Assembly (NCBI GenBank): GCA_016219865.1
Contig: JACRKF010000021.1
Span: 2,224 to 66,223, forward strand
Reading direction: 5' to 3'
Source: Candidatus Woesearchaeota archaeon
Lineage (GTDB): Archaea > Nanobdellota > Nanobdellia > Woesearchaeales > DSVV01
Length of the DNA: 64,000 nt
Part shown: one piece after another, positions 6,017-58,433 of the stretch
Numbering within the stretch: position 1 is the stretch's first letter
Layout: each line of letters begins with the position of its first letter
The notes under the pieces: generated by a model
Told to the model about the DNA's origin: nothing
Databases searched by the model: none
What the model saw: the letters and a program-made list of their open reading frames with translations, nothing else
Made by a program: the position numbers and the translations under genes

Positions 6017-6283
6017 ATGAACAAACCAATTATTTTACATAGCCCAACATTAGAATCTGTTTTTATGGTAGAAGAAACAATACAAAAATATAGCCAAGAA
6101 TGTGGCAAGTATCAATTATGGAAAAAATTACCAAAAAAAATGATGTATCAGACATTCCAGATAATTTTAGATTATCTTGAACAATCAGGAAAAATAATCA
6201 TAGATAAAGATGGTTGTATAATTTGGACTTTTAATCCAGAAAGAATCAAGAAAATCTTAAAAGAGGATTTGATTATACGATGA
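6017..6283 (+). CDS. putative antitoxin (small protein overlapping a downstream RelE/ParE-like gene)
   Basis: The 88-aa ORF overlaps the next ORF in the 4-bp ATGA arrangement. No recognisable motif. Confidence 0.35.
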   Translation: MNKPIILHSPTLESVFMVEETIQKYSQECGKYQLWKKLPKKMMYQTFQIILDYLEQSGKIIIDKDGCIIWTFNPERIKKILKEDLIIR

Positions 6284-6615
6284 ATAAAGAGATTTCTGTT
6301 GCATTTATTACCCCTAACATAAAAAAAGAATGGGAAGCTCTTAAAGAAGGAAAATTTGAAGATAAGGAACTTTACAAATTTATTGATAGGGCGATTGATG
6401 ATCTAAAGGTAAATCCAACATGTGGTATAAAAATCGCCAAGAACTTATGGCCAAAAGAATATATCCAGAAATATGAAGTAAGTAACCTCTGGAAATATAA
6501 TCTTCCTAATGCATGGAGATTAATTTACACTATAGAAAGTGATGAAGTAAGAATTGTAAATGTAATTCTCGAATGGTTTAACCATAAAGAATACGAAAAA
6601 CGTTTTAAATATTAG
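6280..6615 (+). CDS. RelE/ParE-family type II toxin-like protein
   Basis: The C-terminal WRLIYTIESDEVRIVNVILEWFNHKEYE matches the RelE/ParE pattern (R.iY....v.il.i.H.k.Y). Confidence 0.5.
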   Translation: MNKEISVAFITPNIKKEWEALKEGKFEDKELYKFIDRAIDDLKVNPTCGIKIAKNLWPKEYIQKYEVSNLWKYNLPNAWRLIYTIESDEVRIVNVILEWFNHKEYEKRFKY

Positions 6616-8490: not shown

Positions 8491-9309
8491 ATGAATTTTA
8501 AAGCCATAAAATTCGACAAAGATATCATTATTGATAATTATATAAAAACAAAAAGTTTAAATATCAACTATTTATATTATAGACTTATGCAAGCAATAAC
8601 ATTCCTCAAAAACGTAGAACATCTTCACAAACCTGTTTTTTCATTGCAAGATGCAGCAAAAATGATTGAGAAAAAAAAAGGATATGCACGTCTTTATCTT
8701 TATCGTTTGAAAAGAAAAGAATATATCAAAGAAATTGAAAAAGGGAAGTATAGTATTTCAGATGACATCTATGAAATTGCCTCAAATGTTGTATTTCCTT
8801 CATATATCTCATTCTTGAGCGCATTTTCTCTATATGGTTTAACAACACAAATACCAAAGAGGATACAAATTATTGCAGCAAAACCAAAAAAAGAATTAAT
8901 AGTTGATGATTCAACTATTGAATTTATTACATTTAAGAATAAGAATATTTTTGGATATGAAAGAACAAAGATTGGAGTTCATTATGGCATGATTGCAGAA
9001 AAAGAAAAAGCAATAATTGATGCATTATACTTACCGCAACATTGCCCAATCAGTGAAACATTTGAAGTGCTTAAGAATAAAGAATTTGACATCGACAAAT
9101 TAGTTGATTATGCTCTGCAGATGGATTCAATAATATTATTAAAAAGACTTGGTTATCTTTTAGAATTAGTAGAATTTAACATTTTTGAAAAAGTAAAACA
9201 TAAGTTAAATCAACGTTATGATCTTTTGAATCCATTTCTCCCTGCTTCAAATAAAGAATGTATAAAATCTATGAAATGGAAACTAATTATAAATGAGGTG
9301 CTTGAATGA
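8491..9309 (+). CDS. AbiEi-like antitoxin / transcriptional regulator (type IV TA)
   Basis: wHTH-like N-terminus. 4-bp overlap with the AbiEii gene. Confidence 0.5.
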   Translation: MNFKAIKFDKDIIIDNYIKTKSLNINYLYYRLMQAITFLKNVEHLHKPVFSLQDAAKMIEKKKGYARLYLYRLKRKEYIKEIEKGKYSISDDIYEIASNVVFPSYISFLSAFSLYGLTTQIPKRIQIIAAKPKKELIVDDSTIEFITFKNKNIFGYERTKIGVHYGMIAEKEKAIIDALYLPQHCPISETFEVLKNKEFDIDKLVDYALQMDSIILLKRLGYLLELVEFNIFEKVKHKLNQRYDLLNPFLPASNKECIKSMKWKLIINEVLE

Positions 9310-10058
9310 TACTGCGAAATCAATTAGGAAAATATGCGCAGATGCTTAACTATGATCTTGGACAGACAGAAAAAGATTATCTGCAGCATTTGTTTTTATT
9401 TTTTCTATCACAACATGATACAACAAACCTTGTGTTCAAAGGCGGAACAGCATTGCAGAAAGTATATGGTTTGAATAGATTTAGCATTGACCTTGATTTT
9501 ACTGCTAAAGAAAATAACATTGACTTCAAGATGTTAATAGAGAAAATTGCAAAGAAAATAACAGATTTTGGTTATAACTGCAAAGTGCAAGAGATAAAGA
9601 CAATTGGAAAAACATTTGTGATAAAAATACAAGGCCCTCTTTATCAAAACAGTCAAGTAAGCACTTGCACATTGCGTATTGAAGTTAGCTTTCGTGAATC
9701 ACTTTTGCTTCAACCAATCCTAAAAGAGATCATTCCATCATACACTGATTTACAACCCTATACTATCCTTGTCATGCAAACAGAAGAGATATTAGCAGAA
9801 AAAGTGCGTGCAATTATGACACGAAACAAACCAAGAGATATATTTGATCTTCATTTCTTGCTGCTGAAAAACACAGCTTTCAATATTGAGTTTATCAACA
9901 AGAAACTAGATTATTATAAGGAAAAATACAATAAAAAAGCATTTTTACAAAAGATAAAAGAAAAAGAGAAAATATGGAATCATGAAATGAAGCAGTATAT
10001 TAGAAATCTACCTTCATTTGAATCTATTGAAAAAGAGATCATAAAAAGAGTCTCTTAG
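9306..10058 (+). CDS. AbiEii/AbiGii-family nucleotidyltransferase toxin
   Basis: The LVFKGGTALQKVYGLNRFSIDLDF motif is typical of DUF1814 (AbiEii). Confidence 0.8.
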   Translation: MILRNQLGKYAQMLNYDLGQTEKDYLQHLFLFFLSQHDTTNLVFKGGTALQKVYGLNRFSIDLDFTAKENNIDFKMLIEKIAKKITDFGYNCKVQEIKTIGKTFVIKIQGPLYQNSQVSTCTLRIEVSFRESLLLQPILKEIIPSYTDLQPYTILVMQTEEILAEKVRAIMTRNKPRDIFDLHFLLLKNTAFNIEFINKKLDYYKEKYNKKAFLQKIKEKEKIWNHEMKQYIRNLPSFESIEKEIIKRVS

Positions 10059-25577: not shown

Positions 25578-27515
25578 CTAGCGTATCCTGCTTTTAGCAG
25601 CCTGAAACACATGCTCAGGGAGAACACTTTGAACTGAGATGATACCATAATGCAGACCAATTGCTTCTGCTGGCGCTTCTTGCTTTGTATAACTAAATCC
25701 ATTGCCATTAGAACTCAAAGGAAATAAAGAAACTTGTACTGATGAATTTACCCCTAAGTCTCTAAGATTAGGAAAATGTGTTGGAAGAATTGCGCGAACA
25801 CCTTTATTGAGAAAAGTGTTTTCTGCAATTGCATATAAGATTGCTGCGCCGTCATCTGCTCTTGTTGCAGTTCCCTATTCATCTAATACCACAAGACAAT
25901 ACGATTCACAACCTGTAATCTGCTCATACAGCTCTTTGATTGCTTGTTTTTCAGCAGCAAAACTGCTTTTAATATTTGTTCCTACTTGCCTATGCCTTAC
26001 AAATATTCTTTCATGGATTGAGATTGTAGCAGAACTTGCTGGGACATATAATCCAGCCTGCGCAAAATTCACAAGTATTGCAGCCATATCAGCATAGATT
26101 GACTTTCCTGCTTCATTTGGACCTTCAACTATCTCAACAAGAGTATCGTGATTAAGATAGACGCTATTTGGCATTGGTTTGGAAACATGAAGGAAAGGAT
26201 TTAGGCCATTTTCAATATTGATTATCCTTTCTTCTTTTGGAACAATTGTAGACCTTACCCTTTTTTTTTCTTTAAAAAATTTTGCTAATCCTGCATACAA
26301 AGCAATCTCTTTTTCAATTTTTTTAAAAGAAGTTGTAATATATCTAAATTTCTCGAGGGAATTACGTTCCCCAAATAGATGATATAACTCTTTAGCATCT
26401 TTTGGATCTGCTGCTATAATCTCTTGCAACTTCTTTTTTAATGAAGAAATTCCTTTCTCTTCATTCTTCATTATATGATCCACAGCTCTCTGTATACGAC
26501 CAAGTTGCGGAACATCAGCATCAGTAAGATCTGGAAATGAGATGCTTTCCAGATTTTGAACAACATTTTTTACATTTTTCATAAATTGTTCATAACAAAA
26601 TTGAGCAACATCTTTAGCTTCTTCTGGATCAAAGAGATAGGTTCCACCATCTCTTGATTGGATATTACCCATCCTATGACCATGTTTAGAATGTTTATTC
26701 ATAAATCCTATCCCTGCTTTTCCTTTATAGCACTGAAATAGATCCATGACAGACCAAAGAAGAGCTTTCATAGTAGAATCGAGAGAGATGCAATCATTTT
26801 TTGTCAAAGATTTTAAAAGATCGTCATTAACCATAAAATAATTGATTGCGTCAGTTCGTTGAGCAATAAGATTTCTGTCAGTCAATGGATTAAGCACCCA
26901 ATCAGCAAGTTGAGGTTTGTCTAGATCATATCCTGAAAATAATGCATTAAGCAATCGTGGAGTTGGTTTTTCCATAGTAAAGAAATAACCAAATGTCTTT
27001 TCTGTATCACCACCATAAAGCGCATTATAACTTTCATGATCAAGAACTGCACTATGTAAAAAACTAAGCGAATCATCTTTAGGTAAACTCCCTTTTACTA
27101 ATTGAGGATGCTTTGTATATGATAGATCAATCTCATCAACAAGAACAACAATATTGCCATATTTAACAGAATCCATATTAATTTTAGGCGCAATCACTAT
27201 ATCTGCAGATTCAAGACGAGCTTTGTATCTTTTTGGATCAAGAGAAAACTTTTCAAGAGGAATACTGGACATCCTCATTTTTGTTTGAACAAGAGCCTTG
27301 TAAAGAGAAAGTGCTTCCTTTATATGAACAGGGATATGATCATCACGACGTGAATCATACTTTCCATAATTAAGAGAATCGAGATCATGTTTCCCATTAA
27401 CTTTTGAAGCAATAGTCCCTACAAAAACTGCGCTTAGATTATGATGCAATTCACTCCTTAACTCAAGAATTTTAGCTCCAGTTTCTAATGTTTGTATTTC
27501 CTCTTCAAGCGTCAT
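25578..27515 (-). pseudogene. MutS-family ATPase (domain V) interrupted by an in-frame TAG at 25875-25877; read-through would give about 645 aa
   Basis: Walker A GPNEAGKS. The sequence reads ...SYCLVVLDE-[TAG]-GTATRADDGAAILYAIAE...THF, which matches MutS LLDE-I-GRGTSTyDG...TH. No MutS domain I (GDFYELF) is present. Confidence 0.7.
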
Positions 27516-29262: not shown

Positions 29263-30960
29263 TTACTCTTTCCTCTTAAACTTCTTCTCAAGTTCATACA
29301 ATGAATAATGTATTATTGCTGGACGTCCATGCGGGCAAGTGAATTTATTTTCGCATTGAAACAATTCTTCCAGAATTCTATAGATCTCTGGAAATTCTAA
29401 TACATCATGCGCTTTTACTGCGCTTCTGCAAGCTGCTCGTGCTATTCTCTCCTCCTTAATTTCCTCAATTTTCACCGTTTCGCCAAGATTTAATTCATCA
29501 ATAACATCATAGATTAATTGTTTCTGTTGTGTTCTTCCAAAAACAGAAGGTAATGAGCGAAGCAGATAACTATCATTACCAAATAACTCAAGATTAAACC
29601 CAGTGCTTTGCAGCAATTCAATATTCTGCTCTATAATAACGCGTTCATTTGGTGTTACATGCAACACAATTGGTGTTAATAATTGCTGCGCATGTATATG
29701 CTTATCTTTGCATTCTTGCAAGAATTTCTCATACATAACTCTTTCATGCGCTGCATGCTGATCAATCAGAAGCATTCCTTTTTCATCTTCTGCAATGATA
29801 AATGTATTATGTATCTTTCCAATTAATCGTATATTCAACACTTGTTTTAAAGGTAATAAAGACGGCGCTTGCGTGAATGCAGTTTGATATTCAATAAACT
29901 GCCCTGCTGAGGACAATATAAGTTTTGCATCAATCTCTTTTGGTCTTGATTCAATCACTTCCGGAATCAAATTTTCTTCAACTAAGCAATCGATAACTGC
30001 TTTCTTTATTGCTTCATAGATTAAATATTCTTTATCAACTCTGACAATTGATTTTGAAGGATGCACATTAACATCAACTTTCTGCGGCAGAATAGTTATA
30101 TTTAAAATAAAGATCGGATGCCTTCCATGAAACAAGAAAGTGCCATAACCATCATAAACAGCTTTGTTAAGAACATAATTTTTAATATACCTTTTATTAA
30201 TGTACAAGCTTTGATATTCTTTATCTGTCCTTGCTGCATTTGGCTTGCCGATATAACCATTAATCTCAACATCGCCATTTGCAAAGTTAACAGCCAGAAA
30301 CTCTTTTGTTAAATCTCTGCCATATATTGTTATAATATTATTCAGCAGATCTGTTGTAGACGGTGAATTAATAATTGTCTTCCCATTATGCGTCAACAGA
30401 AAATGCATCTCTGGATGGATTAATGCATAACGAGTAATGATATCAATAATATGATTAAATTCCACTGCAATTCCTTTCAGATGTTTTTTTCGCGCAGGAA
30501 CATTGTAAAAAAGATCAGAAACAGCAATCATTGTGCCTTGTTTTGCGCTGACATATTCCTGCTTTAAAACAATGCCATTTTCAACTGTTATTGAAACACC
30601 AACATCATTTTCTTTTGTTTTTGTTATCATTTCAAGCTTAGCAATTGAAGCAATACTTGCTAATGCTTCTCCTCGAAATCCAAGAGTTGTAATCTGAAAC
30701 AAATCCTGAAGATTATTTAATTTTGATGTAGTATGGCGCTGTATACTCATCACAACATCATCTTTCTCAATACCTGATCCATTGTCACTCACTTTAACAA
30801 GAGATTTCCCGCCTTCAATAACTTCAATGGAAATATGTGTTGCTTCTGCATCAATTGCATTCTCAACCAATTCTTTTACAACAGAAGCAGGTCTTTCAAT
30901 AACTTCTCCAGCTGCAATCTTATTTATTAAATCTTTATCAAGTTCTTTTATTTTACTCAT
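29263..30960 (-). CDS. mutL: DNA mismatch repair protein MutL (with endonuclease motif)
   Basis: GHKL motifs ELVENAIDA, DNGSGI and GFRGEAL are present. The C-terminal DQHAAHERVMYEKF is the DQHAxxExxxxE nicking motif. Confidence 0.9.
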   Translation of the reverse strand: MSKIKELDKDLINKIAAGEVIERPASVVKELVENAIDAEATHISIEVIEGGKSLVKVSDNGSGIEKDDVVMSIQRHTTSKLNNLQDLFQITTLGFRGEALASIASIAKLEMITKTKENDVGVSITVENGIVLKQEYVSAKQGTMIAVSDLFYNVPARKKHLKGIAVEFNHIIDIITRYALIHPEMHFLLTHNGKTIINSPSTTDLLNNIITIYGRDLTKEFLAVNFANGDVEINGYIGKPNAARTDKEYQSLYINKRYIKNYVLNKAVYDGYGTFLFHGRHPIFILNITILPQKVDVNVHPSKSIVRVDKEYLIYEAIKKAVIDCLVEENLIPEVIESRPKEIDAKLILSSAGQFIEYQTAFTQAPSLLPLKQVLNIRLIGKIHNTFIIAEDEKGMLLIDQHAAHERVMYEKFLQECKDKHIHAQQLLTPIVLHVTPNERVIIEQNIELLQSTGFNLELFGNDSYLLRSLPSVFGRTQQKQLIYDVIDELNLGETVKIEEIKEERIARAACRSAVKAHDVLEFPEIYRILEELFQCENKFTCPHGRPAIIHYSLYELEKKFKRKE

Positions 30961-30990: not shown

Positions 30991-32379
30991 TTAATTGTGA
31001 TTTAATACCTGATTCAGATTATGGTTGCCTTTATCACTAATACCATATCTTTCTCTAACAATTCTTTCTTCTCTATCAGTTAAGCGAGATAATAGTTGTT
31101 TTAATCTAAAACTATCATCTTTTACAAGAGCAGAATCATCAGCTGAAACTGATGCTGTATTCTCAAGCACATCATAATAAGTCATTTCTTTTCCTGTACC
31201 AACGGCATCATCAAGTGAAGTAAGTGTTAATCGTTTTTTGTATTCATCATATGTTTTTTCATCAAGATACTTCCTTTTGCCTGTTATTTCCATCTCATAC
31301 TCTAAATCTTCAAAAGTTCTATGCTTTCTTTCTATCTCTCTATAAGTTGCTGCAAATTTCTCTTGCGCATGCACAGGAGTGCGTATAGTCTTATTCTGAT
31401 CTATAATTGCGCGAGTTACTGCTTGCTTTATCCACCATGTTGCATATGTTGAAAATTTATATCCTCTCTGCCCATCAAATTTTTCTACTGATTTCATTAA
31501 TCCAGTATTTCCTTCTTGAATTAAATCAGAAAGAGTCATATTGTCCAATAAATGAGTGTATTTCTTCGCAATTGAAACAACAAGACGAAGATTTGCATTA
31601 ACAAATTTATTGCGAAGTGAGAAATATTCTCTAAGATCTCTGCCTATGGAAATAAGATCCTCCTTGTAAGCATTATGTATTCTAAATGCTCTTGCATTCC
31701 CAGCTAAAGAATCACCTAATTTATTTTCATAAAACTCCATATAATGACAAGCTGCTGCCTTAAACAAAGAATATGAATTAAAATAAAATGAAGGATCAAC
31801 ACCAAAATCAATGATCTCTTTAAGAAATTCTTTTCCATACTCTACTTTTCTAGCAACAGATGGAATTATTCTGCCATATTTCAACCTTTTTTCACCCAAT
31901 ACCGGGATAATTTCTAAATAAAAGCTTTCAACTGCTTTACGCATTTGATCATATACATTACCATCTTTTTCTACCTCGCCTTTATCAGTTACTTGTTCTT
32001 CATCTTCATTACTTTCTTGAATATAACCCTGTTGTTCAGCATCGCCATTATCAACTTTCTGTTTAGAAATTGCATAAGCAACTCTTTTCTCTAAACGAAA
32101 AACTTTTAACAATGGTTGAAGAACATATTCTGGATTTATACCATAAACTTTTCCGATAAAAGAACTTCTCACTTCACGAAGTCTTTGGGAAAGATTAATT
32201 TCTTCATCTCTTGTTAGTAATTTAATTGCGCCCATACTTTTCATATAAGTAGAACAAGAATCTGAATCAATAAGTTCAGAACCATTAGGCCGAGAATCAC
32301 CTGGAATATAAATACCCTCTGCATAATCATCTAATCCTAATGCATGAATTCTATTCTCCAACCCCACAATCTCTTCCAT
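30991..32379 (-). CDS. bacterial-type sigma-70 family protein (regions 1.2, 2, 3, 4.1), apparently lacking the region 4.2 recognition helix
   Basis: Region 2 [11 protein letters not shown]...[41 protein letters not shown] is nearly identical to the RpoD consensus. Region 1.2 ([16 protein letters not shown]) and region 4.1 ([15 protein letters not shown]) are present. The ORF ends right after NLNQV. Confidence 0.8.
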
Positions 32380-33902: not shown

Positions 33903-34415
33903 TTACCAACTTCCACTTAAAGTATATCCATTAAGTATATTATGGAGAAGTTCTTTGTTTGTTACATTCTCCATCCTATGAAATTGCATTACTTGTATTT
34001 CTCTTTTTAGAATTTTTTCATATTTTTTTAGATCTAGTTTCTTATCAGTTGGTGTAAAAACAGCAATATCTATATCTGAATCTGATCTTGCCTCTGCTTT
34101 TGATAACGAACCAAAAAGTATAATGACTGGATTTAGCAGTTCATTTTCGAAATAATCAAGCATTCCTGATTTTTCAAGAATAGATCTCCAATAGAGCCTT
34201 GATAAATCAATAAAGAACTGAGAGTCTTTATTTGCATAATAATATATATACAATTTATCTACTTCCTTTTTTAAGATTTTCTCGATAAAGAAAGTATCAA
34301 GAAGTTTAGATGCTGTTGGTGGACTTATCTTTTGCATTCTTGCATATTCTCTGACATTGATTCTCCTATAATTATCTTCCATAAACGATTTCAATCTGTT
34401 AATTATTTCTAACAT
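33903..34415 (-). CDS. minimal nucleotidyltransferase (MNT) with an N-terminal wHTH
   Basis: GSLSKAEARSDSDIDIAVF matches the GS-x9-DxD nucleotidyltransferase motif. Confidence 0.75.
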   Translation of the reverse strand: MLEIINRLKSFMEDNYRRINVREYARMQKISPPTASKLLDTFFIEKILKKEVDKLYIYYYANKDSQFFIDLSRLYWRSILEKSGMLDYFENELLNPVIILFGSLSKAEARSDSDIDIAVFTPTDKKLDLKKYEKILKREIQVMQFHRMENVTNKELLHNILNGYTLSGSW

Positions 34416-36537: not shown

Positions 36538-37176
36538 ATGATAACCAAAAAAAGAAAGGTTTATATAGTTCCAACCCATAACTATAGTTATATGGAGAAT
36601 CCGCATAGTTTCAAAACAATACAGTTGTTATATAATGAAACCGCAGAAAAAAGAATATTAAGAAGACTTTTTCTTGATCCTAATAAAGAGTTTAGTTTAT
36701 CTGATCTTGCAACGCAGTCTTCTATGCGAAAAGAAAACATTGGAAAGATTTTAAAACATTTTGAAAAGAATGATTTGATCACAATAGCAAGACTGAAAAC
36801 AATTTGGCAGATACGTGCAAACCAGCAAAATAGCTTATTTATAAGAATGAAGATAGTCCATAATTTGCAGAACATTTACAATTCAGGTTTAGTTGACTTT
36901 CTGAATGAATATTACAACAATCCAAAAGCAATTGTCCTCTTTGGAAGTTATAGGAAAGGTGAAGATATTTCAACATCAGACATTGATATTGCAGTCGAGG
37001 ATGATTCAATTAAAGAATATAAGATACTTGAATTAAAAGAACTGAAAGAAATAGAAAAACATCTGCAAAGAAAAATACAGGTTCATTTATTCAATAGAGC
37101 AGATATAAACAAGAATGTATTCAGCAATATTGCCAATGGCATTGTGTTATTTGGTTTTTTAGAGGTTAATCTATGA
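36538..37176 (+). CDS. nucleotidyltransferase (MNT) with an N-terminal wHTH
   Basis: LFGSYRKGEDISTSDIDIAV. 4-bp overlap with the next gene. Confidence 0.7.
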   Translation: MITKKRKVYIVPTHNYSYMENPHSFKTIQLLYNETAEKRILRRLFLDPNKEFSLSDLATQSSMRKENIGKILKHFEKNDLITIARLKTIWQIRANQQNSLFIRMKIVHNLQNIYNSGLVDFLNEYYNNPKAIVLFGSYRKGEDISTSDIDIAVEDDSIKEYKILELKELKEIEKHLQRKIQVHLFNRADINKNVFSNIANGIVLFGFLEVNL

Positions 37177-41537: not shown

Positions 41538-42224
41538 TTATCCTTTATTCACAGCTTCTGCAAATGCCTGCAATGCAGCTTCATATTGCTCAAAATAGGG
41601 TAATATCTTATCCAATCTTCGTTGCGCTTCTCTTATCTCTTGAACACTGCCAGATAATTGTTGAGGAGATAATGATTGCCTACTTGAAGTTTTGCTTTGC
41701 AGTTCATAGTGCAACTCAATTGACCAATAATTATATTTCACATCTCCTTTTCTTTCTTCTGCTGCAAGAAAATCCATAACAGAAGCTTTTGGTGCAGCAT
41801 ATACCAAAAGATTAGACAACTTATCACCAAGATCATCATTATCCCATATATATGCATATGATGTTTCAGGAGTTAATTGTATAGATAATTGAGAGAGTTG
41901 GCTCATAGGATCTGCAAGAGAAAATACAAATTCATCAAATATTTGAAAAATTGGTTTACCTTTAGTATAAATTATATCAGTTCCTACCTTCTCAAAGAAT
42001 GGAGCAACATTTTTTGAATCATTACCTTGATACAATGTTCTATTATCAAAACGCGCAAGAACATATGGATGTACTTCTGTTATATCTGACAATTTACAAA
42101 CCACATAAAGAAAATTATTTGCTGGATGTGGTTGGTATAAAAAAGTATTAGGTTGTTGTCCAGTCACTTCAGCAAGAATTATTTCAAGTATTTGAAGCGG
42201 TGTATTTGGTGTATTTTCAGACAT
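41538..42224 (-). CDS. hypothetical protein
   Basis: 228 aa, no motif. Confidence 0.45.
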   Translation of the reverse strand: MSENTPNTPLQILEIILAEVTGQQPNTFLYQPHPANNFLYVVCKLSDITEVHPYVLARFDNRTLYQGNDSKNVAPFFEKVGTDIIYTKGKPIFQIFDEFVFSLADPMSQLSQLSIQLTPETSYAYIWDNDDLGDKLSNLLVYAAPKASVMDFLAAEERKGDVKYNYWSIELHYELQSKTSSRQSLSPQQLSGSVQEIREAQRRLDKILPYFEQYEAALQAFAEAVNKG

Positions 42225-42259
42225 AAAGTGATTATGGTGAACTACTATTTAAAATTATT

Positions 42260-42406
42260 TATTCAGAGTATGTGTTTAGCACCCTAAGGTCGAAATTCAA
42301 TCGATTTCTCAACGAGAGCGTCGCGAGGGGATGCTCCATCCGGGAACGCAGCTCCTTAGGAAATCCCGTCGAGAATTTCGAAGGTGCTAAACACATACTA
42401 TTCAGA
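42260..42406. mobile_element. GC-rich 131-bp element with perfect 16-bp terminal inverted repeats flanked by an 8-bp direct repeat (tattcaga). MITE-like insertion, or alternatively a structured ncRNA
   Basis: The structure is tattcaga|gtatgtgtttagcacc...ggtgctaaacacatac|tattcaga. The core has nested complementary segments (tcgaaattc/gaatttcga, cgaggggat/atcccgtcg, ctaagg/ccttag) and is about 55% GC in an about 30% GC genome. Confidence 0.4.
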
Positions 42407-42530
42407 TAATATTCTCGAGTTTGTTTCACTCACTCAGAAAATAATACTCTTATACTTAAATTAATAAAGAACTTATATGCGCATAGGAAAAGACAAGATT
42501 TAAATTAACCTATTAAATAGTATTTTCTGT

Positions 42531-43769
42531 ATGAACGAAGTGAATACGAAAATACTTAAGATCAACAAAACACCCTGGCATTCATGGTGCACTGGAAAGA
42601 TTTCAAAAGGCTGCGCATATTGTGTGCAAGGAAGAAAGTTAGTGTTATTTATCACAGGATTATGCCCGCAAAGATGTTTTTATTGCCCTGTAGGAGAACA
42701 AAAGTTTGGCAATGATGTTGTATATGCTAATGAATGGAAATTAGAAGATCCGAACAATCCTGTTGAATTAATAAAAGAAGCAGAACTAACGCAAGCAAAA
42801 GGCGCTGGAATTACTGGCGGAGATCCATTGATGAATATTAAGAGATGCTGCAATTATATCCAATTATTAAAAAAAAAGTTTGGAAAAGAATTTCATATTC
42901 ATTTATACACGCCATTGAAATTAGTAACAAAAGAAAGATTACAAAAACTATCTGCTGCTGGACTTGATGAGATAAGGTTTCACCCTGATTTAGATGATAA
43001 TTCTTTATGGAACAGGATTAAAATTGCAAAAAAGTACAGATGGGAAATTGGTATAGAGATTCCAGCAATTCCCGGATATGAAAAAAAAACAATGAGACTG
43101 ATTGATTACATTATTTTTGCAGACTCCCTATTGCCCGAATTGCCTAATGAGGAGAATTTTGCATTTTTGCAAAATTCTCCAAACAAAGTATCATTCATCA
43201 ATCTTAATGAACTTGAACTTTCAGATACTGAAACAAAACATTATACATTGCCAACAAAAGGGTTTAAGGCAAAAGATAATATTAGTTATGGTGTAAAAGG
43301 AAGCAAAGAGATGGCAATAAAAATGCTGGAATATGCTAAAGAAAAAGGATTATCTGCGCATTTTTGCACTGCAAGACTAAAAGATGGTATACAAGTCAAG
43401 AAAAGATTACAAATTAGAGCAGAAAACATTAAATTACTATTTGATGAAAAAACAGAAGATGGAACATTACTGCGCTGCTGCATATACCTCCCAGAACTTG
43501 CGCCAGGAATGAATTATAGAGAAAAACTAAGAAACGCTGATAAAAATGATTTTATTGAAAAACTAACAGTTATTCGCAATAAATTATTAGAAACTTTAAC
43601 ATTAAGTGAAAAAGAAATAGTTATTGATTCAAACAAATGCAGATTAATCATTCCAAGAAGTGTTGCAAAACAATATGCAAATAAAATAAAGAAATATAAT
43701 TTACTTCCAGCATTAGTTGAAGAATATCCTACTCAAGATGGATTTGAGGTTGAGATTGAATTTTTGTAA
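42531..43769 (+). CDS. radical SAM domain protein
   Basis: The CPQRCFYC (Cx3Cx2C) motif is preceded by a CAYC motif. The gene contains an in-frame copy of the family A repeat at 43120-43180. Confidence 0.7.
   Translation: MNEVNTKILKINKTPWHSWCTGKISKGCAYCVQGRKLVLFITGLCPQRCFYCPVGEQKFGNDVVYANEWKLEDPNNPVELIKEAELTQAKGAGITGGDPLMNIKRCCNYIQLLKKKFGKEFHIHLYTPLKLVTKERLQKLSAAGLDEIRFHPDLDDNSLWNRIKIAKKYRWEIGIEIPAIPGYEKKTMRLIDYIIFADSLLPELPNEENFAFLQNSPNKVSFINLNELELSDTETKHYTLPTKGFKAKDNISYGVKGSKEMAIKMLEYAKEKGLSAHFCTARLKDGIQVKKRLQIRAENIKLLFDEKTEDGTLLRCCIYLPELAPGMNYREKLRNADKNDFIEKLTVIRNKLLETLTLSEKEIVIDSNKCRLIIPRSVAKQYANKIKKYNLLPALVEEYPTQDGFEVEIEFL
43120..43180. repeat. palindromic repeat, family A, copy inside a coding sequence (ggagaattttgca-tttt-tgcaaaattctcc, plus the conserved left flank cagactccctattgcccgaattgcctaatga)
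   Basis: It is read in frame as ...DSLLPELPNEENFAFLQNSPNK... within the radical SAM protein. Confidence 0.7.
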
Positions 43770-57839: not shown

Positions 57840-58433
57840 ATGAAAACCAAAACATTTTTAAATTTGATTAGCTTTACCCTAACTAAAATGAAGAAAGCAG
57901 ATAATATCTTAGAAATATTCTTTAATTACCCTACAAAACAGTGGCATTTTGAAGATATAGTAAGAACAGCAGCAATTAGTAGGCCGCAAGCCACAGGATG
58001 GTTAAAAAAGTTCATCAAAGAAAAAATCATCATAAGAATAAAACAAAAAAGAAGAATGCCATATTACATTGCAAATTATCAAAATGCACAATATCAGATT
58101 AAAAAACGATTATATGCATTAGATAATTTTGAAAAAAGTGGCTTTTTAGAGCATCTTACAACACTCCCAAAAGCAAATAACATTATTCTTTTCGGTAGTT
58201 TTAGCAGATGGGATTGGAATGATGAAAGTGACATTGATATTTTTGTATATGGCAGTACAGAAGGCTTTGATATGAGTTATTACAGAAAAAGACTAGGAAG
58301 AGAGATTCAATTATTCATATGTAAAGATGAAGAACAATTGCAAAAATATAATTCTGCTCTCTTGAGGAATATCATAGAGGGTTATCTGATTAAAGGTGAT
58401 TTACAATTTATTGAGGTAAAACCACATGTATAA
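57840..58433 (+). CDS. nucleotidyltransferase (MNT) with an N-terminal wHTH
   Basis: LFGSFSRWDWNDESDIDIFV. Confidence 0.65.
   Translation: MKTKTFLNLISFTLTKMKKADNILEIFFNYPTKQWHFEDIVRTAAISRPQATGWLKKFIKEKIIIRIKQKRRMPYYIANYQNAQYQIKKRLYALDNFEKSGFLEHLTTLPKANNIILFGSFSRWDWNDESDIDIFVYGSTEGFDMSYYRKRLGREIQLFICKDEEQLQKYNSALLRNIIEGYLIKGDLQFIEVKPHV

Follow-up and report, generated by a model that had tools for sequence, protein, structure and literature searches.

The 131-bp GC-rich island at positions 42268-42398 of the stretch of DNA analysed here (64 kb from a Candidatus Woesearchaeota, a DPANN archaeon; hereafter the window) is probably a non-autonomous DNA transposon of the MITE type, non-coding, bounded by inverted repeats of 15-16 bp and flanked by an 8-bp duplication of its target. 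We detected four further copies, each in a different Woesearchaeota contig and gene neighbourhood. Alignment of the copies with their flanks placed the start and stop of similarity exactly at GTATG...CATAC, and the flanks themselves are unrelated. Two of the five copies, those in the window and at locus L010, carry perfect 8-bp duplications of their own, TATTCAGA and GTTTTTTA, and these are different sequences. The initial annotation had read the flanking direct repeats and terminal inverted repeats as the mark of a transposon-derived element. This is supported by the copies at non-orthologous sites, by ends that fall exactly at the repeats and by the different perfect duplication of L010.

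Structure and setting of the element

The annotation had described an island of 131 bp with perfect 16-bp terminal inverted repeats and an 8-bp flanking direct repeat, and both the sequence and the repeat finder confirmed this. Read from left to right the element is tattcaga, GTATGTGTTTAGCACC, interior, GGTGCTAAACACATAC, tattcaga, with TATTCAGA on each flank (Table 1). The repeat finder allows the inverted repeat to be read as 17 bp when A42267 and T42399 are counted. A search of the 64 kb for the arm GTATGTGTTTAGCACC, allowing up to three mismatches, returned only the two arms of the element itself. It should be noted that the 8-mer TATTCAGA is not rare across the window (4 copies found, 6.5 expected); the chance of identical 8-mers abutting both ends, as estimated from the window base composition (0.283 per position), is about 4e-5 for each perfect match.

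The GC content is 50% for the whole element and 52% for the interior, against a window mean of 31.8%, and the highest 100-nt GC value of the window (0.54, about 4 sd over the mean) falls in the element. The island thus stands as the GC-richest 100 nt of the window, with an interior slightly below the 55% first claimed. Of the nested complementary segments proposed, TCGAAATTC/GAATTTCGA and the crossing pair CCTAAGG/CCTTAGG are present, while CGAGGGGAT/ATCCCGTCG pairs at 8 of 9 positions. The fold energy of the element is very low compared with shuffled sequences (z = -6.8 and -7.0 on the two strands), as is expected of any long inverted repeat.

Table 1. Coordinates of the element, its flanks and associated features, with the surroundings of the five copies. 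Positions refer to the window unless a contig is named.
Feature	Position	Strand	Remark
Left target-site duplication copy TATTCAGA	42260-42267		same 8-mer abuts both ends
Left terminal inverted repeat GTATGTGTTTAGCACC	42268-42283		exact complement of 42383-42398
Interior, 99 bp, 52% GC, partly self-complementary	42284-42382		non-coding; 1-2-nt indels in the other four copies
Right terminal inverted repeat GGTGCTAAACACATAC	42383-42398		same in 4 of 5 copies, decayed in L012
Right target-site duplication copy TATTCAGA	42399-42406		same 8-mer as left flank
Subterminal inverted repeat TCGAAATTC/GAATTTCGA	42290-42298 / 42373-42381		repeat finder
Crossing 7-mers CCTAAGG/CCTTAGG	42283-42289 / 42354-42360		repeat finder
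Terminal 31-mers of the element			GTATGTGTTTAGCACCCTAAGGTCGAAATTC at one end, GTATGTGTTTAGCACCTTCGAAATTCTCGACG at the other
Expected empty-site sequences			TTAAAATTATTTATTCAGATAATATTCTCGAG for the window locus, ATTTAAAATAAACGGTTTTTTAAGCAAAGATATT for the L010 equivalent
TATA box TTTTAAATA of the 228-aa gene	42246-42254	-	context, outside the element
TTTAAA(A)T box, window	42246-42254		
TTTAAA(A)T box, L003	L003 7531-7539		
TTTAAA(A)T box, L004	L004 333-340		
TTTAAA(A)T box, L010	L010 5283-5290		
Part of the element on Logan contig L001	42268-42297		L001 1-30
Window copy			orphan gene / radical SAM gene; flanking 8-mers 8/8 (TATTCAGA)
L003 (L011) copy			csp-like gene / FKBP-like gene; flanking 8-mers 4/8
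L004 copy			non-coding stretch / 3' end of 625-aa gene; flanking 8-mers 6/8, in T-run
L010 (L013) copy			GatE / MscS; flanking 8-mers 8/8 (GTTTTTTA)
L012 copy			3' end of 154-aa gene / RPA-like gene; flanks not scorable, one arm decayed

The divergent intergenic position noted in the annotation was confirmed, with a 228-aa ORF at 41538-42224 (-) to the left and a radical SAM gene at 42531-43769 (+) to the right. The 228-aa ORF is an orphan: a search of 5.8 billion proteins returned only the ORF itself, and no Pfam family matched it. The homologues of the radical SAM neighbour are overwhelmingly from Woesearchaeota/Nanoarchaeota. Read from the sequence, both genes have a TATA box with its 5' T 30-32 nt from the ATG, and with this spacing both look leaderless. 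The box of the 228-aa gene lies 13 bp from the left end of the element and 5 bp from the duplicated target, and its 5' T is 30 nt away from the first base of the start codon (ATG, A at 42224).

A comparison with empty sites was tried for both neighbours. On the right, the contig of the closest relative, L002 (78% amino acid identity), ends 117 bp upstream of the gene and the promoter alone aligns, and on the left the 228-aa orphan gene has no homologue to compare. As a separate observation, the radical SAM promoter (window 42490-42531; L002 75-118; gaaaagacaa.atttaaat...taaatagtattttctgtATG) is near-identical in the two despite 78% protein identity, and the DNA upstream of it is unrelated between the window and L002.

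Copies at other loci, target duplications and decay

We scanned 185,579 species genomes with a pattern composed of one arm and the subterminal repeat, which gave one match, in another Woesearchaeota genome (L003). A scan of JGI metagenomes with a slightly relaxed pattern of arm and subterminal repeat gave nine loci, four of them real (L004, L010, L011 and L012) and the other five single-arm chance matches. As L011 is the same locus as L003, and L013 the same as L010, there are five distinct copies, including that of the window, 76-92% identical to each other and 129-131 bp long. All are short and without coding capacity: indels of 1-2 nt (2 nt deleted in L003, 1 nt in L004) shift the only through-frame of the window copy, so that no reading frame is conserved, and a protein-coding reading was ruled out on this ground.

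No orthologues common to the compared loci were found. The elements of L004 and L012 both lie 5 bp past a stop codon, that of the 625-aa and the 154-aa gene, respectively. At the L010 locus the element is present in all four assemblies, and the closest relatives of its GatE are at most 71% identical. Outside cellular genomes, blastn against plasmid and phage collections (11-nt words, E up to 1) gave no match, and neither did two conserved 19-20-mers of the element among viral contigs. A 15-mer of the arm matched 46 viral contigs, all single-arm chance matches with neither a second arm in the right order nor nhmmer similarity. An nhmmer search with a five-copy profile added no extra copy in the window or in any retrieved locus. 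Two minor observations concern the surroundings of the copies. The non-coding stretch L004 1-350 holds about five ACGAGTCAA(A)AAAT-like motifs at irregular spacing (near 43, 77, 161 and 212), which could be iteron-like or binding-site repeats, and the CDC48/AAA gene near the L010 copy (L013 1-3732) contains an intein with a LAGLIDADG endonuclease domain.

The differing 8-mers flanking the element at different sites mark them as target duplications and not as a fixed attachment site. Further, to find two independent perfect duplications, unrelated in both sequence and site, is what characterises a transposase with an 8-bp staggered cut, and it does not fit a resident gene. The remaining flanks are imperfect (6/8 in L004, 4/8 in L003), so two of the four scorable copies show no convincing duplication. 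The same observations bear on a DNA-level recombination or protein-binding site, such as an integron attC-like hairpin or a palindromic operator, which we regard as very improbable. Integrons are reported in archaeal assemblies, and the element, a long imperfect palindrome, matches attC sites in length and has two copies directly after a stop codon. However, attC recombination proceeds without an 8-bp target duplication; on inspection GTTTAGC lies 5' and GCTAAAC 3', the reverse of the R''(RYYYAAC)...R'(GTTRRRY) order; neither an attC array nor an integrase is present in the window or L013; and it is the sequence, not just the structure, that is conserved between genomes.

The first 15 nt of the left arm are identical in all five copies, and the terminal 15 nt of both arms in four, one arm of L012 being decayed. 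Among the four well-preserved copies the sole difference in the arms is the last base of the L003 left arm (C to A), and their interiors deviate from the consensus at 3-15 positions. It should be noted that the search patterns demanded one intact arm, so this conservation is partly built in; the arms free to vary are intact in three of four cases. Counted over the whole element, the differences from the five-copy consensus are 3 of 131 for the window, 9 for L010, 11 for L003, 15 for L004 and 20 for L012. When all five copies are summed, 30 changes run from GC to AT vs 13 from AT to GC, a pattern that suggests an ancestral sequence richer in GC and resident copies decaying towards the composition of their hosts. 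The window copy would be the youngest, as it is the closest to the consensus, which agrees with its intact duplication, and the insertion in the window is apparently recent.

Beyond the termini, the duplications, the differing insertion sites, the absent coding capacity and the decay pattern, all of which are observed, we infer a transposase and an order of events. A transposase encoded elsewhere, of which the source could be the same genome, the host, a virus or a plasmid, would bind both identical termini and excise or copy the element. The element would then be joined to a target cut with an 8-bp stagger, and repair of the stagger would give the flanking direct repeat. At the window locus, the insertion would have occurred between two divergent promoters, duplicating the 8-bp target TATTCAGA. 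The GC-rich self-complementary interior would be inherited from an ancestral (master) sequence and would not be maintained in resident copies, where it would drift towards AT and lose pairs.

In the window, in each retrieved locus including the 21 kb around L010, and in the 185,579 species genomes, no genome with two or more copies was seen, and the element appears to be low-copy. Logan assemblies derive from graphs with k = 31, where each 31-mer is present a single time (PMC12424806). In the L010 organism, the Logan contig (L016) runs unbroken through the element, which implies no branch in the graph of that organism. In the window organism, the Logan contig L001 (run SRR12113407) breaks off after exactly 30 nt of the element. 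As this stop falls at k-1 = 30 nt, it suggests a second context for the terminus of the element in SRR12113407; a polymorphism at position 31 is a less likely cause than a second copy with a different flank.

TATA-box spacing and the RNA-gene question

In four of the five copies (window, L003, L004 and L010) a TATA-like box, TTTAAA(A)T, is found 13-14 bp from one end of the element. The box starts 20-21 nt from the same element end in the window, L003 and L004, and from the other end in L010, and the duplicated 8 bp begins 5-6 bp from the box in all four. With a rate of TTTAAA of 0.0027 per nt, taken from the non-coding DNA of the window, the chance that 4 of 10 ends should carry it in a 2-nt slot is about 2e-7; a correction for having picked the position post hoc raises it to about 1e-5. 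For the window and L010 copies the box belongs, as TATA box, to a leaderless gene that points away from the element, which places the duplicated target immediately upstream of the BRE. L003 and L010 each have another TATA-like box 15-17 bp past the other end; the element there fills a very narrow gap between back-to-back promoters.

Survivorship could explain the position of the element in L003 and L010. In the window there is about 100 bp of free spacer, and survivorship alone is therefore insufficient there. The spacing could reflect a choice of target near promoter DNA, the use of promoters by the element, or both. That the element chooses its target relative to a bound promoter is a doubtful proposition, and if the integration machinery did read the promoter bent by TBP/TFB, archaea would have a counterpart to the use of TFIIIB by Ty3 and the Dictyostelium TRE elements. 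In a weaker version the element may depend on, or supply something to, the adjacent promoter.

The TATA-box association could thus instead point to promoter use, and it bears on two further explanations. One is a single-copy structured ncRNA gene of the Woesearchaeota lineage, served by the outside TATA box, with the terminal stem setting the mature ends and the flanking 8-mers coincidental. Such a gene would fit with the box that the window, L003 and L004 copies all have upstream of one and the same end, with the finding that no gene reads away from the box in L004, and with the T7 run directly after the L004 element. It would also fit with the strong predicted folds, the apparently single copy per genome, and the retention of the GC-rich island, at 43-50% GC, in five genomes that are rich in AT. 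Against this, the well-placed TTTAAAAT box of L010 is at the opposite end, and at the 30-32-nt TATA spacing of this organism a transcript would start about 10 nt inside the arm and lose most of the terminal stem. Further, the T-run terminators are inconsistent between copies, and two independent perfect 8-bp flanking repeats of different sequence are unexpected for a resident gene.

The annotation had suggested an RNA gene (SRP RNA, RNase P RNA, 5S rRNA, H/ACA or a ribozyme) and a scan for known families, and neither an Rfam match, a tRNA, covariation nor a favoured strand spoke for it. Rfam cmscan at the gathering score gave 0 matches over the whole window. With E up to 10 on 42150-42520 (371 nt) it returned just three hits of snoRNA type (10-16.5 bits, E 1.2-7.9), two of them in the flanks and one (42192-42309) covering only the first 42 nt of the element, so no family matches it even at this threshold. 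The ARAGORN search found no tRNA. By eye we noted superficial likenesses to a tRNA cloverleaf, a permuted tRNA, 5S loop C, the SRP helix 8 GNAR/AGCA motif, H/ACA boxes, C/D boxes and a bulge-helix-bulge motif, and all of these are lost in the homologues.

For covariation we used the three-way-junction structure of the window copy, on which 90.5% of the cells pair. Only 1 of the 49 pairs changed on both sides, a count that 345 of 500 shuffles equalled or exceeded; the covariation score of 0.082 is the shuffled mean (0.082), and every measure equals its shuffled control, in a test which with five sequences has low power. The RNAalifold covariation term is positive, that is a penalty, on both strands. 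Outside the window copy about a quarter of the interior pairs are wobble or broken. The derived changes comprise about 8 new G-U and 8 new A-C, so neither strand is favoured; assigning a strand from G-U vs A-C failed, as isolated cases point both ways and the totals are equal. The possible pseudoknot raised in the annotation, examined here as the pair CCTAAGG/CCTTAGG, did not survive inspection of the copies: intact in the window, it has 6 of 7 pairs in L004, can form in L010 only if the register is shifted, and is broken in both L003 and L012. The decay pattern argues against selection on RNA structure in resident copies, and what would support a structured RNA gene is composition and self-complementarity, nothing beyond. 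We hence consider an RNA gene improbable.

The other explanation is a mobile element with a functional transcript or DNA hairpin (a terminator, an insulator or a mobility RNA), whose insertions next to promoters would be the ones retained. It draws on the same evidence of mobility as the MITE-type transposon, on the TATA-box spacing and its low chance value, and on the two copies directly after a stop codon, and the bacterial MITE-like repeats Correia and ERIC act as RNA hairpins. However, there is no sign of selection on the interior structure in resident copies, and the orientation to the TATA box varies, which makes this unlikely as well.

Related elements and the search for a transposase

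Our preferred reading, a non-autonomous MITE-type transposon, places the element beside several known systems. Prokaryotic MITEs, including SM1-SM4 of Sulfolobus and those of haloarchaea and methanogens, are small and non-coding, with terminal inverted repeats and a target duplication of fixed length. As these, the present element is intergenic, capable of forming a hairpin over its whole length and would depend on a transposase supplied in trans. It differs in its apparently single copy per genome, where such MITEs have tens, in that no parent insertion sequence was found for it, and in an interior far richer in GC than the host. Among insertion sequences, IS66 (termini starting GTAA), IS6, ISL3, IS1595, IS256 and the ISH1 group of IS5 duplicate 8 bp. 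The element shares with these its repeats of 15-16 bp, and its GTA start resembles the ends of IS66, a likeness in family traits that does not suffice to place it in any of these families.

Correia/NEMIS, ERIC, RUP and BOX are likewise intergenic inverted-repeat elements of 100-150 bp found near promoters or gene ends and forming stable hairpins; they are bacterial, high-copy and have known effects on transcripts, whereas the element described here is low-copy. With the GC-island RNAs of archaea (SRP, RNase P, 5S, H/ACA, C/D and Hgc) it has in common a GC-rich sequence in an AT-rich genome and a long closing stem. Unlike them, it has no covariance-model match or covariation, carries target duplications and sits at a different locus in each genome. 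A full-text literature search turned up no MITE or insertion-sequence family described from DPANN archaea, and we suggest the element as a new family of MITE-type elements, possibly the first for this group.

The genomes of DPANN archaea are very small and compact, and the organisms depend on hosts. If the element is mobile, a near-consensus copy with an intact duplication implies a working transposase somewhere in the community, and the element could mark gene flow between Woesearchaeota, their hosts and viruses. For annotation it is a caution that GC-rich, strongly folding islands in AT-rich archaea are not always RNA genes. The promoter-proximal spacing is to our mind the feature worth a further look; should it hold with more copies, it would be informative on the targeting of insertions, or on their tolerance, where genomes have hardly any intergenic DNA to spare.

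The check for a matching insertion-sequence transposase that the annotation had proposed came out negative for the window: among the 60 ORFs scanned of the 64 called, no Pfam match to a transposase or integrase family was found. The remaining four match Elp3, a P-type ATPase, a radical SAM protein and a beta-CASP nuclease, matches read from the sequences alone except for the radical SAM protein, which has Pfam hits. L013, which covers 21 kb around L010, likewise shows no transposase or integrase among its listed Pfam families, and no autonomous element with the same termini was seen in the 64-kb window, in L013 or in the 46 viral contigs. The missing partner transposase weakens the case for a MITE, as do the single copy per locus, the unbranched graph of the L010 organism, the weak duplications in two copies and the pattern-based ascertainment of the copies.

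By Pfam, the 60 scanned ORFs of the window are ordinary archaeal housekeeping genes along with several toxin-antitoxin and nucleotidyltransferase genes. ORFs of toxin-antitoxin or defence type lie at 6280-6615, 8491-10058, 33903-34415, 36538-37176 and 57840-58433, a set made up of a ParE/YoeB-like toxin, an AbiEi/AbiEii pair and three Pol-beta-type nucleotidyltransferase ORFs. A MutS-like and a MutL gene are found close together, at 25875-27515 (-) and 29263-30960 (-). Finally, an ORF of 462 aa at 30991-32379 (-) matched Sigma70_r2 (E 1.7e-18) and Sigma70_r1_2; these sigma-70 domains are bacterial and unexpected in an archaeon, and the gene may have been acquired from bacteria.
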